DNA of 64,000 nt, taken from contig CANPWM010000002.1 in NCBI GenBank assembly GCA_947584295.1, positions 7,937 to 71,936 of the forward strand, read 5' to 3'. The notes below the pieces were generated by a model. It saw only the letters and a list, made by a program, of their open reading frames with translations, had not been told where the DNA came from and searched no databases. This DNA is from an uncultured Oscillospiraceae bacterium. Its GTDB lineage: Bacteria > Bacillota > Clostridia > Oscillospirales > Oscillospiraceae. The translations under genes and the position numbers were made by a program. Shown piece by piece: positions 6,331-36,531 of this stretch (position 1 is the first letter of the stretch; every line of letters begins with the position of its first letter).

Positions 6331-6759
6331 TTAGGCTTCGGTAAATTCCTCGTCCAGCGGCGGCAGCTCCCGGCCCGCCAGCTCCGCGATGATCATGCGA
6401 CGGGTGACGATGCCGCACAGCGCCCCCCGGTCGTCCACCACCGGGACGAAATTCTGCTGGAGCGCCGCGTCGATCAGCTTATCCTCGCTGGCCGTGATGG
6501 CGATAGGCGGGCAGAAGTCCCGTCGCATGATCTCCCCCACCGTATGGCGCTCCATCTCCGGCGCGGCGCCGTTCAGCCCGTCGAAATACCGCAGAAAGTC
6601 CCGGTCGTTGACGCACCCGATGAACTTCCCCTCCGGGTCCAGCACCGGTATGGCGGTGTACCCGTGGCGGCGCATCACATCTACGCCCTTGCGGATGGTG
6701 GAGTCGGTCCGCAGGCACACGGTCAGCGCCTTAGGCACCATGATTTTCGCTATGTTCAT
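6331..6759 (-). CDS. CBS domain-containing protein
   Basis: 142 aa with a tandem CBS pair pattern (HGYTAIPVLDPEGKFIGCV ... NFVPVVDDRGALCGIVTRR). Confidence 0.85.
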   Translation of the reverse strand: MNIAKIMVPKALTVCLRTDSTIRKGVDVMRRHGYTAIPVLDPEGKFIGCVNDRDFLRYFDGLNGAAPEMERHTVGEIMRRDFCPPIAITASEDKLIDAALQQNFVPVVDDRGALCGIVTRRMIIAELAGRELPPLDEEFTEA

Positions 6760-31455: not shown

Positions 31456-33654
31456 ATGAAGATCATCAAGCGAAACGGCGCGGAGATGGATTTTGACATC
31501 AAGAAGATCGAGAACGCCATCAGCAAGGCCAATATGTCCGTGGAGGAGTCGTCCCGCATGACGCCCCTCCAGATCCGGCGCATATCCGAGTCCGTGGCCC
31601 TGGACTGCGAAAACATGGGCCGAAGCCCCTCCGTGGAGGAGATACAGGATCTGGTGGAGAAGCAGATCATGGCCCACGGGGCCTTTGAGGTGGCCAAGAA
31701 CTACATCACCTACCGCTACACCAGGAGCCTGGTGCGCCAGAGCAACACCACCGACGAGAAGATCCTCTCCCTCATCGAGTGCTGCAACGAGGAGGCCAAG
31801 CAGGAGAACTCCAACAAGAACCCCGTGGTCAACTCCACCCAGCGCGACTACATGGCCGGTGAGGTCAGCCGCGACCTCTCCGAGCGCATCCTTCTCCCCC
31901 GGGACATCGTGGAGGCCCACGAGGCCGGGATCATTCACTTCCACGACACCGACTATTACGCTCAGCATATGCACAACTGCGACCTGGTGAACCTGGAGGA
32001 TATGCTCCAGAACGGCACCGTCATCACCGGCACCCTTATCGAGCGTCCCCACAGCTTCTCCACCGCCTGCAACATCGCCACGCAGATCATCGCCCAGGTG
32101 GCCTCCAACCAGTACGGCGGCCAGTCCATCTCCCTTACGCATCTGGCCCCCTTTGTGGACGTGAGCCGCCGGAAGATCCGCAAGGTGGTGGAAAACGAGC
32201 TGGTGACTCTGGGCGTCAACCCCGAAGAGGATAAGATCCAGAAGATCGTGGAGGACAGGCTCCTGGAGGAGATCCGCCGGGGCGTCCAGACTATCCAGTA
32301 CCAGGTGGTCACCCTGCTCACCACCAACGGGCAGGCCCCCTTCGTCACCGTGTTCATGTATCTGGGCGAGGCCCGCTCTGAGCGGGAGCGGGAGGATCTG
32401 GCCCTGATCATCAGGGAGGTCCTGCTCCAGCGCTACGAGGGCACCAAGAACGAGGACGGCGTATGGGTCACCCCCGCCTTCCCCAAGCTCATCTACGTTC
32501 TGGAGGAGGACAACATCACCGAGGGATCCCGGTATTGGGAGCTTACAAAGCTGGCGGCCAAATGCACCGCCCGCCGCATGGTCCCCGACTACATCAGCGA
32601 GAAGAAGATGCTGGAGCTTAAAGGCGACGTCTACACCTGCATGGGCTGCCGCTCCTTCCTGACCCCCGACCGCTTCACCGACGCGGGCGTGGGCAACATC
32701 GCCAACGCCGGAAACTACGAGCCGGGCAAGCACAAATACTACGGCCGTTTCAACCAGGGCGTGGTCACCATCAATCTCCCCGACGTGGCCCTCTCCTCCG
32801 GCGGCAATATGGACAAGTTCTGGAGCATCTTTGAGGAGCGCCTGGAGCTGTGCCACCGGGCCCTGCGGTGCCGTCACGAGCGGCTTCTGGGCACCCCCTC
32901 CGACGTGGCCCCCATTCTCTGGCAGCACGGCGCCCTGGCCCGCCTGGAAAAAGGCGAACCCATCGACAGGCTCCTCTACGGCGGCTACTCCACTATCTCC
33001 TTGGGCTACGCCGGTCTTTATGAGTGTGTCAAGTACATGACCGGCAGATCCCACACCGACCCGGAGGCCACCCCCTTCGCCCTGGCGGTGATGCAGAAGA
33101 TGAACGACAAGTGCAAGGAGTGGAAGACGGCGGAGAACATCGACTACTCCCTCTACGGCACGCCCCTGGAGTCCACCACCTACAAGTTCGCCAAGTGCCT
33201 CCAGCGCCGCTTCGGCATCATCGAGGGCATCACCGACAAGGGCTACATCACCAACTCCTACCACGTCCACGTCACCGAGCAGATCGACGCTTTCACCAAG
33301 CTCAAATTCGAGTCCGAGTTCCAGGCCCTCTCCCCCGGCGGCGCCATCAGCTACGTGGAGGTGCCGGATATGCAGAACAACCTGGAGGCCGTTTTGCAGG
33401 TGATGCGGTTCATCTACGACAACATCATCTACGCCGAGCTGAACACCAAGTCCGACTACTGCCAGTGCTGCGGCTGGGACGGCGAGATCGACATCGTGGA
33501 GGAGGACGGCAAGCTCATCTGGAAATGCCCCAAGTGCGGCAACACCGACCAGAACAAGATGAACGTGGCCCGGCGCACCTGCGGCTACATCGGCACCCAG
33601 TTCTGGAACCAGGGCCGGACCCAGGAGATCAGAGACCGGGTACTCCACCTTTAA
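31456..33654 (+). CDS. nrdD: anaerobic ribonucleoside-triphosphate reductase
   Basis: 732 aa. N-terminal ATP-cone (MKIIKRNGAEMDFDIKKI), C-terminal Zn ribbon CQCCGW...CPKCG and glycyl radical motif RTCGYIG. Confidence 0.95.
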   Translation: MKIIKRNGAEMDFDIKKIENAISKANMSVEESSRMTPLQIRRISESVALDCENMGRSPSVEEIQDLVEKQIMAHGAFEVAKNYITYRYTRSLVRQSNTTDEKILSLIECCNEEAKQENSNKNPVVNSTQRDYMAGEVSRDLSERILLPRDIVEAHEAGIIHFHDTDYYAQHMHNCDLVNLEDMLQNGTVITGTLIERPHSFSTACNIATQIIAQVASNQYGGQSISLTHLAPFVDVSRRKIRKVVENELVTLGVNPEEDKIQKIVEDRLLEEIRRGVQTIQYQVVTLLTTNGQAPFVTVFMYLGEARSEREREDLALIIREVLLQRYEGTKNEDGVWVTPAFPKLIYVLEEDNITEGSRYWELTKLAAKCTARRMVPDYISEKKMLELKGDVYTCMGCRSFLTPDRFTDAGVGNIANAGNYEPGKHKYYGRFNQGVVTINLPDVALSSGGNMDKFWSIFEERLELCHRALRCRHERLLGTPSDVAPILWQHGALARLEKGEPIDRLLYGGYSTISLGYAGLYECVKYMTGRSHTDPEATPFALAVMQKMNDKCKEWKTAENIDYSLYGTPLESTTYKFAKCLQRRFGIIEGITDKGYITNSYHVHVTEQIDAFTKLKFESEFQALSPGGAISYVEVPDMQNNLEAVLQVMRFIYDNIIYAELNTKSDYCQCCGWDGEIDIVEEDGKLIWKCPKCGNTDQNKMNVARRTCGYIGTQFWNQGRTQEIRDRVLHL

Positions 33655-33913
33655 TACTAATATCTAATTAAAATAAGACATTCGCGCCGGTCTTTTTTCG
33701 TCCTCGCACGAGCCGCTTAACCTCGGGCTGCAAGTATTCGCCCTCAGGCGCTGGCTCGGCTCGGCCTCTCCCCATCGGGCAGCGGCCCGATGGGGGCCCC
33801 GGATACTGCGTCAGCCGCCTTGGGAATACATACAGTATTCCCTGCGGTGTCTTCCTTGCCTGACACGAAAAATCCTCGCCGCTCGGTGTCTCCTTTTAAA
33901 TAGATATTAGTAT
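33654..33913. mobile_element. MITE-like 260-bp insertion between nrdD and nrdG
   Basis: Terminal inverted repeats ATACTAATATCTAATTAAAA (33654-33673) and TTTTAAATAGATATTAGTAT (33894-33913) match 19/20. The interior holds an R2 copy and a GGGAATAC-atac-AGTATTCCC hairpin; no ORF. Confidence 0.65.
33699..33800 (+). repeat. R2 structured repeat, copy d
   Basis: CGTCCTCGCA-CGAGCCG...CGGCTCG-GCCTCTCCCC-ATCGGGCagcgGCCCGATGGGGGCCCC. Confidence 0.8.
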
Positions 33914-33922
33914 CAAACTAAC

Positions 33923-33956
33923 CGTTCCCGGGGCGCAAGTCCCGGGAAACGTTTTA
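33923..33956 (+). terminator. intrinsic terminator/attenuator between nrdD and nrdG
   Basis: CGTTCCCGGG-gcgcaagt-CCCGGGAAACG followed by TTTT. Confidence 0.65.
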
Positions 33957-34061
33957 AAAAACAAAATCGAAGCCCAGCGCAGCGGGTTCGATTTTGAGAG
34001 GAGGAATGAACACAGCGCCTGAGCCGTCACGCCCGCGCGGCGGCGAGGCAAAGCGTGTTCA

Positions 34062-34604
34062 ATGACGACGATGAATTATGGTGAGATCAAAAACTGCGAC
34101 ATTGCCAACGGTCAGGGGGTGCGGGTGACGCTCTTTGTCTCCGGCTGTACCAACCACTGCCAGGGGTGCTTCCAGCCCCAGACCTGGGATTTTGACTTCG
34201 GCAGGCCCTTCACCCGGGAGGCGGAGGATCAGCTGATGGAGATGCTGGCCCCCGGCTACATCAACGGCCTGACGCTCCTGGGCGGCGAGCCTATGGAGCC
34301 GTCCAATCAGCGGGCGCTGCTGCCCTTTGTCCGCCGCGTCCGGGAAACCTACCCGGACAAGACCGTGTGGTGCTACTCCGGCTTCACCTTAGAGGAGCTT
34401 CGCACCGACGGCTCCCACCCCCGGTGCGAGGCGACGGACGAGCTGCTCTCCCTTATCGACGTCCTGGTGGACGGCAAGTTCGTCCTGGCCCAGAAGGACA
34501 TCTCCCTGCGCTTTCGCGGCTCCCGGAACCAGCGGATCATCGCCCTGCCCAAGACGCTGAAAACAGGCCGGATCTGCCTGTGGGACGACCATCTGGGCAA
34601 ATAA
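34062..34604 (+). CDS. nrdG: anaerobic ribonucleoside-triphosphate reductase activating protein
   Basis: DIANGQGVRVTLFVSGCTNHCQGCFQPQTW radical SAM cluster motif; 180 aa. Confidence 0.9.
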   Translation: MTTMNYGEIKNCDIANGQGVRVTLFVSGCTNHCQGCFQPQTWDFDFGRPFTREAEDQLMEMLAPGYINGLTLLGGEPMEPSNQRALLPFVRRVRETYPDKTVWCYSGFTLEELRTDGSHPRCEATDELLSLIDVLVDGKFVLAQKDISLRFRGSRNQRIIALPKTLKTGRICLWDDHLGK

Positions 34605-34629
34605 CGGCCCCCGCAGCAAACAATTTTCT

Positions 34630-35688
34630 TTAAACATGTCCCAATTCCCTTTTGTGTTCCCGGAGTATCTGAGCCATACCTGGGGTGTATATTTATCCAG
34701 CGGTGTGTAAAACATTTTCCCGCTATCATAATTGCTGACGGGTGATAATGCAAAATACACTGCCGCCTCAATTTAATGAAGTCGGGGTTACATGATAACT
34801 GGATCTACAAGGTACACAATATATGGTCGTCAGACTATGTATAGAAGTGCGCCCTTTAGTTCCAAAATGGTTTTTACAACGTCTCAACAAGCAAGAATTT
34901 ATCTGCCAGAACGGAAATGGGAAAAGGCCAGGATCCCCACGGGAAGGAAATAAGCACACCAGCATTCCAGCGCGATGACGCCGCCCACGCTTGTTCTCCC
35001 GTCAGCCATAGAACTGAACACACCCGTCATGGGCATGATAAAACAGCCAAAGAAGAAAATGCCGTGGATGATCATCAAGCGTCTCAACCATTGATCCACA
35101 CGATTGTGCCCACGTATGGTCAGCCCAAAAAAGAATGTCGACAGCGCCATCATGCCATAGCCCAGCAGGTCATAGCTGAACATCAGCCCGCCTCTGGAAT
35201 AATCCAGCAGCTTTACAGCCTGGTCTGTCATCGTGTCAAGCCGGACAGTTGTCGTCTGCGCGAAATACACCAGCAGGACAAATACGGCGTAGATGACGGC
35301 GAAGGCCATACCCGCTTTTGCCGCAACCTGATGCTCTGCATCGCTTTCACGGCTGAATCCCGCTGCCATCATCACATACCCGATGGCAAGCAGCATACAC
35401 ACAAAATAGCTTCCGAAGTCAAAAGGAATCAGCATGCAGATGGCAAACAGAAGAACTGAAAAGACGACGATCAAAGATCCTGCTTTCGCAATGCTGCGAT
35501 CCATCATGCTCCCTCCCTAAATCAGAAATTTGTCGAGCAGTCGCCCACGTCGATATTTAATATTATACTACCCAAATGTGAAGAAGTCTACCACTCATCA
35601 GGTGGAAGTGATGGGGTTTTATTCACGCTGATTGATAACAATTCGCGATTTTAGCTGGGAACACAAAGTCGAATTGGGACTTAAACAT
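34630..35688. mobile_element. mobile insertion cassette-like element (TIR + 8-bp TSD, single passenger gene, no transposase)
   Basis: Direct repeat TTAAACAT at 34630-34637 and 35681-35688. Imperfect inverted repeats GTCCCAATTCCCTTTTGTGTTCCC (34638-34661) and GGGAACACAAAGTCGAATTGGGAC (35657-35680) match 21/24. The interior is visibly AT-richer than its flanks. Confidence 0.75.
34899..35507 (-). CDS. hypothetical integral membrane protein (about 6 TM), passenger of the cassette
   Basis: 202 aa, hydrophobic throughout, GGGAGGGAG SD before the ATG. No motif recognised. Confidence 0.6.
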   Translation of the reverse strand: MMDRSIAKAGSLIVVFSVLLFAICMLIPFDFGSYFVCMLLAIGYVMMAAGFSRESDAEHQVAAKAGMAFAVIYAVFVLLVYFAQTTTVRLDTMTDQAVKLLDYSRGGLMFSYDLLGYGMMALSTFFFGLTIRGHNRVDQWLRRLMIIHGIFFFGCFIMPMTGVFSSMADGRTSVGGVIALECWCAYFLPVGILAFSHFRSGR

Positions 35689-35693
35689 AAGCG

Positions 35694-35727
35694 GCCCCCG
35701 TGACCTGCCGTCACGGGGGCGTTTTTA
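35694..35727 (+). terminator. intrinsic terminator (bidirectional context)
   Basis: GCCCCCGTGAC-ctgcc-GTCACGGGGGC followed by GTTTTTA. Lies immediately next to the cassette target site. Confidence 0.75.
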
Positions 35728-36531
35728 TTCATTTGTTTTCTCCGGGGGCGTCTCCTTGGGCTTCGCGGCCGAAAGCAGGCTCATCAGATCCAGGGCGGTA
35801 TACACCGCGTAAAGGGCCAGCGGCACCCGCATGGCCAGGGGCGCGGGATCCGCCGCGGCCACCGGCAGGAGGAACACCGCCACGGAGCTTAAAAGGAGCG
35901 TCCCCGTGATATTCCGCCGACCAAAGGCGTACCCGGCGCGGCTGAAGGCGCTGAAGCACCCGAAGGCCAGGGCCAGACAGCGGAAGCAGTAGTCCAGCAA
36001 AATCGGGTTCCCGGCGTTCTCCCGGTACCAGCCCACCATCCAGTAACAGCACAGCAGCGCCGGGGCGATGCTCCCGGGCCGCAGATACGGCGAGTCCTTG
36101 CGGGTGTAGGAGGTGCAGGCCATCACGGTCATTCCAAAGCCCGTCAGCCCCAGCAGGAGGACAAAGGGCCACCTGGCGCTGTTCTCCATGCCCATGATCG
36201 CCACGCCGCGCCGCATCAGCAGCAGGGCGCAGAACATGACCACAATGCCCATCAGGGCCTTGGCGGCAAAGTGGATATAGCCCTCCACGGGAATGGCCCG
36301 GCGGAAGCTTCCCCCCGCCTCATAGTCCCTGGCCGCCAGGCACATGGCCACGGCGATGGCCAGGGCCAGAAAGCCCAGCATATACAGCGCCACCGTAGCC
36401 GCCGCCCAGGGCCGGGGAAGGCCAGCGGGGTCGTAGGCCGTCTCCAGTTGAACGTGTCTCACAAAGGCCCCCAGGCCCCCCAACAGCAGCACCGCTATGG
36501 GGGCGAACCGTATTTTTCGCATATTCCGCAC
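35725..36531 (-). CDS. hypothetical integral membrane protein (7-8 TM)
   Basis: 268 aa with GC-rich codon usage like the host. No recognisable motif. Confidence 0.6.
   Translation of the reverse strand: MRNMRKIRFAPIAVLLLGGLGAFVRHVQLETAYDPAGLPRPWAAATVALYMLGFLALAIAVAMCLAARDYEAGGSFRRAIPVEGYIHFAAKALMGIVVMFCALLLMRRGVAIMGMENSARWPFVLLLGLTGFGMTVMACTSYTRKDSPYLRPGSIAPALLCCYWMVGWYRENAGNPILLDYCFRCLALAFGCFSAFSRAGYAFGRRNITGTLLLSSVAVFLLPVAAADPAPLAMRVPLALYAVYTALDLMSLLSAAKPKETPPEKTNE

Follow-up and report, generated by a model that had tools for sequence, protein, structure and literature searches.

Structure of the element and its insertion site

The stretch analysed here, referred to as the window, comprises 64,000 nucleotides of contig CANPWM010000002.1 from an uncultured Oscillospiraceae bacterium. 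In it, the plus-strand genes nrdD and nrdG (the latter recognised by TIGR02491 with 178 bits) face a convergent minus-strand gene for a 268-residue membrane protein. Between nrdG and this gene lies an element of 1,043 bp (window positions 34638-35680), bounded by 24-bp inverted repeats that match at 21 of 24 positions. It now parts nrdG from the terminator at 35694-35727. A preliminary description, made from the sequence alone, had assigned to this element the terminal repeats, a perfect 8-bp target duplication, an AT-richer interior, a promoter-like region of its own and a single passenger gene for a 202-residue protein with about six transmembrane segments, and had seen no transposase in it; all of these features stand.

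When the window was searched for the 24-bp repeat with up to three mismatches, two copies were found, which are these two ends alone; in the control, 0 of 100 dinucleotide-preserving shuffles contained the repeat. The octamer TTAAACAT abuts the outer side of both repeats and is identical at 8 of 8 positions, for which the probability by chance is 4^-8, or about 1.5e-5. The GC fraction of the interior is 0.45-0.53, compared with 0.58-0.75 in the flanks, which suggests a foreign origin; insertion of a cassette explains this anomaly of composition beside the nrdDG operon. Apart from antisense shadows, the passenger gene is the sole long open reading frame (ORF) in the element (coordinates of this and other features are given in Table 1). 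In-silico removal of positions 34638-35688 places the nrdG stop codon (34604) before 25 nucleotides, one copy of TTAAACAT, 5 nucleotides and the hairpin 35694-35720 with its T-run. Excision thus joins the 3' region of nrdG to the terminator, as had been claimed, and the predicted uninterrupted allele of the locus reads ...AATTTTCTTTAAACATAAGCGGCCCCCG...

A family of elements with the same ends

Copies of the ends were expected outside the window, and scanning species-representative genomes with the right-end 24-mer located them at 38 loci, nearly all in metagenome-assembled genomes (MAGs) of Oscillospiraceae or other Clostridia from animal and human guts. Further copies are present in metagenome and viral contigs. 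Both ends were found at 17 of the 38 loci (individual loci are cited below by L numbers), bounding elements of 127-2,787 bp, nearly all with a perfect 8-bp duplication. The pooled set contains 47 distinct conserved-end junctions, both ends of the window element counted in; target sites with a perfect 8-bp duplication could be reconstructed in 22 distinct cases. The family shares the end sequence GTCCCAATTC. Its target octamers are 85% A+T with the palindromic consensus C-T-T[TTNNNNAA]A-A-G, to which the target in the window conforms when read from the conserved end (cttATGTTTAAag). A bias of insertion orientation relative to terminators was considered and dropped, since a palindromic target consensus gives no orientation information.

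The elements range from 91 bp to 4,952 bp and, as the preliminary description had anticipated, different cargo lies behind the same ends. It includes DUF3781 proteins, three kinds of GNAT acetyltransferase, VanZ with a lipoprotein, a BspA-type leucine-rich repeat protein, an extracytoplasmic function (ECF) sigma factor with its partner, a helix-turn-helix (HTH) regulator, DUF6773, and small membrane proteins and lipoproteins without a family. The genes read inward from the left inverted repeat (IRL), the sole exception being L023. Members of 91, 127 and 224 bp are free of ORFs and have the same ends and 8-bp duplications. The smallest, found in the IMG/VR contigs L056-L059 (for instance at 4208-4298 of L058), consists of two 24-bp repeats and a 43-bp spacer; the duplication AAAAATAA around it is perfect in three of these four viral-collection contigs and matches at 7 of 8 positions in L056. 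It is the minimal MITE (miniature inverted-repeat transposable element) of the family. MITEs, cassettes with a single gene and complete transposons are all bounded by one and the same pair of 24-bp ends.

That the family has moved recently is shown by near-identical copies. Three insertions of a 608-bp cassette, each in a different MAG, share 99.5-99.7% identity, and three of a 4,952-bp element, each with a different duplication, share 99.96-100%.

Autonomous relatives of the IS1595 type

At L013, an intact ORF for a 393-residue transposase adjoins the conserved end and matches PF12762 (DDE_Tnp_IS1595) with 31 bits, above the cut-off of 27. A homologue search returned many intact 393-residue relatives, whose contigs hold complete elements with the same repeats. 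In L068-L071 these are 4,952 bp long and encode an Mrr_cat nuclease, the transposase, an N6-methyltransferase/Eco57I-like protein and a zinc-ribbon protein. Those in L060-L067 measure 3,757 or 4,600 bp, and contain genes for Mrr_cat, the transposase, an ECF sigma factor and a putative anti-sigma factor, as well as a 179-residue ORF behind an extra internal end. The insertion sequence (IS) with the same ends that had been postulated thus exists, with 24-bp repeats, 8-bp duplications and a 393-residue transposase of the IS1595 family.

The transposases score 80-93 bits on NF033547, the NCBIfam model for IS1595 (cut-off 75; 93.2 for P0135 and 80.5 for P0123), and 37-42 bits on the IS1/IS1595 zinc-domain model NF050000 (cut-off 28). 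Cys48, Cys51, Cys71 and Cys74, forming a CxxC...CxxC motif, are invariant across the aligned homologues, as are acidic residues. Identity to the closest named elements, ISBwe1, ISBth19, ISCaje5 and ISCpe8, on plasmids, is 24-29%; the IS1595 subgroup is therefore unnamed. The IRL of the window element is identical at 24 of 24 positions to that of L068-L071 and L060-L067, its right inverted repeat (IRR) agrees with the family consensus at 23 of 24 positions, and its 8-bp duplication has the length seen in the autonomous copies.

Some further properties of the full-length members may be mentioned. In every transposase-bearing member seen, an Mrr_cat (PF04471) gene of about 220 codons lies directly upstream of the transposase gene (L068 3278-3940, L060 3281-3946, L013, L015 and L029 are examples); its product could assist in transposition, or serve in defence or addiction. 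The elements of L060-L067 (for instance L060 2922-7521) have two copies of the IRR, with the extra end at 6655-6678. The duplication TTAATTTA pairs the IRL with the outer IRR, and the 843 bp between the two IRRs hold the 179-residue ORF. This arrangement looks like accretion of a one-ended cassette, a possible route of cargo gain. In the scan of the genome collection, one copy alone, L013, had its transposase intact; this copy is on a 2.75-kb contig (CAZZNO010000256.1) binned as Prevotella, all other hosts belonging to Clostridia lineages, and reflects either mis-binning or cross-phylum transfer.

A probable mobile insertion cassette

The element at 34638-35680 is very probably a non-autonomous member of the IS1595 family, a mobile insertion cassette (MIC) moved in trans by an autonomous relative. 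Neither a transposase ORF nor a tblastn match to the family transposase is present inside it, and it is therefore a derivative rather than an IS. Its repeats are of the cognate IS type, its passenger ORF is unrelated to transposition and its duplication has the cognate length. The preliminary description had already read the element as a MIC, and the cognate IS ends, the matching 8-bp duplications and the varied cargo behind the same ends support that reading. The element is of a known kind; its family is unusually cargo-rich and recently active, and represents an unnamed subgroup of IS1595.

In the proposed mechanism, both 24-bp repeats, which the DDE transposase of the family must recognise, have been kept. 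Between them would be an arm with a sigma-70-type promoter, the passenger gene with its ribosome-binding site (RBS), and an arm with a terminator-like hairpin and a block resembling an origin of transfer (oriT). An autonomous relative of 3.8-5 kb with the same ends, encoding an Mrr-like nuclease and the 393-residue zinc-finger-HTH-DDE transposase, would supply transposase in trans and insert the cassette into the AT-rich octamer between nrdG and the terminator. Repair of the 8-bp staggered cut would then produce the TTAAACAT duplication. At its new site the passenger gene would be expressed from the promoter in the arm.

Several observations weigh against this reading. The species is sparsely represented in the collections: looking up exact matches to NrdG, to the passenger and to the adjacent membrane protein retrieved four of its contigs, which are at least 99.9% identical and all carry the insertion, and a metagenome scan for the empty-site pattern GGGCAAATAA-N25-40-AAGCGGCCCCCGTGA gave 0 matches. 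Among 80 metagenome loci with relatives of NrdG (up to 74% identity), none has the 268-residue gene or spoIID downstream, and homologues of the 268-residue protein (68-70% identical) are followed by trkH-trkA, not by nrdG. The empty site was not found because the genomes compared included no close relative with the same gene order. The window contains one copy of the element, and tblastn with the family transposase over its 64 kb gave no match, so that the copy could be a stranded one. Neither the passenger-homologue loci nor the plasmid and phage collections contain the exact cassette at another site.

In the nearest relatives (L154 4789-4876 and L157 2955-3217, compared with 34604-35725 of the window), the orthologue of the 268-residue gene is followed by trkH-trkA-sfsA, not nrdG-nrdD. 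As trkH-trkA take the place of cassette and nrdG there, the cassette sits at a break in gene order. An Rfam scan of positions 33500-36500 at E <= 1 detected no known riboswitch or small RNA, the one match being a spurious Spot 42 (20.6 bits, gathering score 80).

Across the family, the cargo spans restriction-modification-like genes, sigma factors, acetyltransferases, surface proteins and small membrane proteins, in many uncultured gut Oscillospiraceae and other Clostridia. The repeat sequence and target consensus provide a handle by which to search for accessory genes passing between gut anaerobes.

Modular construction of the cassette

The cassette is composed of three modules: the IRL-side arm, the ORF with its RBS (34888-35522), and the IRR-side arm. 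Of these, the central module alone shows DNA similarity (92%) to the repeat-free chromosomal homologues L043-L050; similarity to chromosomal homologues (92% and 88% identical) ends 15 nucleotides upstream and 11 nucleotides downstream of the ORF. The arms, on the other hand, share 82-85% identity with the arms of L035 and L025, where other cargo is enclosed. As judged from these alignments, the same arms flank different genes. The part of the IRR-side arm that adjoins the repeat is also common to L004 and L008. The predicted promoter module is kept in the L025 and L037 arms; in L035 and L002 its position is shifted. For the putative terminator downstream of the passenger gene, the L035 counterpart (CCCGTCAGCA-ATTA-TGCTGGCGGG followed by TTTTTT) is better kept than the window copy, which has two stem mismatches and was not called by the automatic terminator scan.

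Table 1. Positions of features in and around the element, in window coordinates.
Feature	Position	Strand	Basis and remarks
Target-site duplication, left copy, TTAAACAT	34630..34637		Read from sequence; same as 35681-35688; fits family target consensus C-T-T[TTNNNNAA]A-A-G from the other end
IRR (IS convention, gene-distal end), GTCCCAATTCCCTTTTGTGTTCCC	34638..34661		Compared with family IRR consensus CTCCCAATTCCCTTTTGTGTTCCC, base 1 alone deviates
IRR-side arm, non-coding, 3' of passenger gene	34662..34898	-	About 82% identity over 268 nt to arm of L035 (GNAT gene as cargo)
Terminator-like hairpin and T-rich tail downstream of passenger gene, partly degenerate	34707..34742	-	Sequence and arm alignment
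oriT-like block	34819..34878	+	10-bp hairpin (34819-34828 with 34833-34842), then MOBQ nick-region core AAGTGCGCCCT (34845-34855)
Passenger gene, 202-residue six-helix membrane protein, weakly DUF998-like	34899..35507	-	ORF, homologues, dN/dS, model
RBS, GGGAGGGA	35510..35517	-	Sequence; within ORF-linked stretch 34888-35522 (homology to L043)
IRL-side arm, non-coding, 5' of passenger gene	35518..35656	-	84% identity over 154 nt to L025; partly common to L035, L002, L004, L008 and L037 (other cargo)
Predicted internal promoter, TAGACT-17-TATAAT, reading into passenger gene	35562..35590	-	Promoter scan, 10/12 consensus positions
IRL (IS convention, gene-proximal end), GTCCCAATTCGACTTTGTGTTCCC read on minus strand	35657..35680		Equals family consensus
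Target-site duplication, right copy, TTAAACAT	35681..35688		Read from sequence
Host bidirectional terminator, outside element	35694..35727		Between convergent nrdG (+) and 268-residue membrane-protein gene (-); 11-bp stem (35694-35720), called on both strands

A second terminator-like hairpin with a T-run is found on the plus strand at 35594-35623, inside the IRL-side arm; it could halt read-through from nrdG, which would be antisense to the passenger gene, within the element. Many family members contain, in both arms and about 35-65 nucleotides from each tip, an AT-rich motif like TGAATAAAT or TATAAATA. Examples are in L068 and at 34684-34703 and 35610-35627 of the window. The motif is on the same strand at both ends and so does not extend the inverted repeat; it could serve as a promoter element or for subterminal binding. 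The pattern used for a regular-expression census of this motif was over-strict.

An oriT-like block in the IRR-side arm

When the element was compared with plasmids by blastn, those of Campylobacter and Subdoligranulum matched a stretch of 38-60 nucleotides in the IRR-side arm. This stretch, downstream of the passenger gene and missed in the preliminary description, resembles an oriT of the MOBQ type, for which the conserved nick-region core is TAAGTGCGCCCT (PMC3832669, PMC10333310). The core in the window matches this consensus exactly, although the base before it is G, not T, and the hairpin pairs in the predicted fold immediately 5' of the nick region. The block is identical at 36 of 38 positions to a sequence 292 nucleotides upstream of a DUF3847-MobQ operon on Campylobacter coli plasmids, and at 24 of 24 positions to a sequence upstream of a MobA_MobL (293 bits) and DUF3847 operon in L174. 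Its homologues are located at L171 2480-2545, L174 5000-5060 and L172 2500-2560, L174 being a 64-kb viral-collection contig. In the relaxase-linked copies the arms of the hairpin have another sequence than in the window, but complementarity is kept.

The exact core, the preceding 10-bp hairpin, the relaxase-linked homologues and the complementary changes in the arms would be expected if the MIC also contained a working MOBQ oriT. A MobA/MobL relaxase would then nick at 34851/34852, and either the excised transposon circle or the replicon holding the cassette would be transferred by conjugation. We consider such a mobilisable cassette unlikely, although worth keeping in mind. The window has no relaxase, and in the homologous arm of L035 both the core (AAGTGTGTCATT) and the hairpin are decayed. 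The core is present in no other member of the transposon family; the block may therefore have been captured from a mobilisable element as an inert fragment, which is how we otherwise regard it. The relaxase-linked copies of the stretch also resemble a terminator hairpin, CCCTTTAG-TTC-CTAAAGGG followed by TTTTT. Should the block work, it would be a naturally occurring mobilisation site that is able to transpose.

Extending this further, the elements with the same ends might constitute a transposon-borne gene-cassette system rather than scattered decayed IS copies, with standard promoter and terminator arms, interchangeable single-gene cargo and, in the lineage of the window element, a captured working MOBQ oriT. 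This more ambitious proposal appears slightly less likely still. If it were true, every transposition would provide another replicon with an accessory gene that is expressed and with a site for conjugative mobilisation.

Other explanations for the element

An origin by deletion in situ is improbable, and clearly more so than a working oriT. On this account the insertion was that of a full IS1595-type element carrying passenger genes, from which the Mrr and transposase genes were afterwards removed by internal deletion, the cassette never having moved as such. It would agree with the order of genes in full elements, where the passenger genes are downstream of the transposase gene and in the same orientation as the passenger in the window, and decayed intermediates with split transposase genes are known from L015 and L029. 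However, L035 has the same two arms (82-85% identity) around other cargo at another site, with no transposase, and its 8-bp duplication now matches at 6 of 8 positions (TTGCCGAA/TTGCAAAA). The transposase-less architecture is therefore older than the insertion in the window. The 608-bp and 91-bp cassettes are near-identical at several sites, so transposase-less family members do move, and no trace of Mrr or transposase is left in the window element.

An inverted repeat that encloses an ordinary chromosomal gene by chance, without mobility, would suit the single copy in the window and the fixation of the insertion in a few conspecific contigs, but is hardly credible given the repeat-free shuffles, the identical flanking octamers and an interior composition unlike that of the host, and is refuted by the same 24-mers bounding dozens of other elements with their own duplications, and transposase genes. 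An integron cassette was also rejected, there being no attC and no integrase gene nearby; the ends are DDE-transposon repeats, with 8-bp duplications at scattered sites.

Comparison with known systems

Elements of the IS1595 family produce AT-rich duplications of 8 bp (7-9 bp), as described for ISApl4 (PMC12561309). The autonomous relatives of the MIC in the window pass the IS1595 models, have the N-terminal zinc domain of IS1/IS1595, make 8-bp AT-rich duplications and carry passenger genes inside their repeats. They differ in that their 24-bp repeats start with G/CTCCCAATTC, not with GGGGCTG-type ends as in ISApl4, and in having an Mrr_cat gene before the transposase in every full copy seen; the window element itself is without transposase.

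Both MICs and passenger-carrying IS elements have been recognised as categories (PMC3129680), the latter including the 'transporter IS' of Siguier, Gagnevin & Chandler 2009, as cited in PMC3129680 and PMC12561309. Genome annotation usually overlooks MICs, and reports of them are rare. Described examples are MIC231, the IS231-derived cassettes of Bacillus cereus (De Palmenaer et al. 2004, as cited in PMC3129680), and the qnrS2 and qnrD cassettes (PMC3913671; PMC5444012). In common with these, the window element has IS-type repeats and a duplication around a gene not concerned with transposition, no transposase, a modular build and presumed movement in trans by a cognate IS. In contrast, it belongs to IS1595 rather than to IS4/IS231 or others, at least a dozen gene types are found behind the same ends, its arms have a predicted promoter and terminator, and this copy has the oriT-like block.

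IS-derived MITEs are represented in the same family by the ORF-free members of 91, 127 and 224 bp, whereas the window element has 1,043 bp and an intact gene under purifying selection. Integron gene cassettes are alike in function only, as single promoter-dependent genes that form interchangeable units; here there is no attC or integrase, DDE transposition would take place at scattered AT-rich sites, and a promoter is predicted inside each unit. Like the MOBQ oriTs of RSF1010/R1162 and pIP501-type plasmids and orphan oriTs, the block in the IRR-side arm has a hairpin followed by the core AAGTGCGCCCT and is homologous to sequence upstream of MobA/MobL. Unlike them, it has no relaxase nearby, lies inside a transposable cassette and is decayed in the sister cassette L035.

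The passenger protein

Homologues of the passenger protein number 2,483, none of them named. Compared with two non-cassette homologues, the passenger gene has dN/dS values of 0.13 and 0.26, and is therefore a real gene under purifying selection. The AlphaFold2 model (pLDDT 77, pTM 0.77) contains six long helices, in agreement with the six or so transmembrane segments predicted before; a family or a fold match was not obtained. No Pfam or NCBIfam model scores above its cut-off, no PDB sequence matches at E <= 10, and comparison of the modelled fold with the PDB by Foldseek returned generic helical bundles with a best E of 0.26 and TM-scores below 0.4. The score on DUF998 (PF06197) is 19.1 bits, under the Pfam cut-off of 30, and weak DUF998 matches are seen in 19 of 48 passenger homologues (best E = 1.8e-5), all sub-threshold. 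The protein is predicted to be a six-helix integral membrane protein, possibly a distant relative of DUF998.

The loci of passenger homologues at 92%, 88%, 83%, 69% and 68% identity have no inverted repeats. The closest non-cassette homologue (92%; L043 2808-3907, also L044-L050) is contained in a 1,058-bp segment with flanking direct repeats of about 40 bp. This segment opens with the module TAGAGCGCACGRCTGCCGCCAGGCAGT...AAGTGCGCCCTT...TTGAMA-17-TATAAT, which also precedes aph(3')-VIIa on a C. coli plasmid (L171 3200-3340), and closes with the first 20 or so codons of an IS200-like TnpA. It may represent a second, distinct kind of small gene-carrying insertion.

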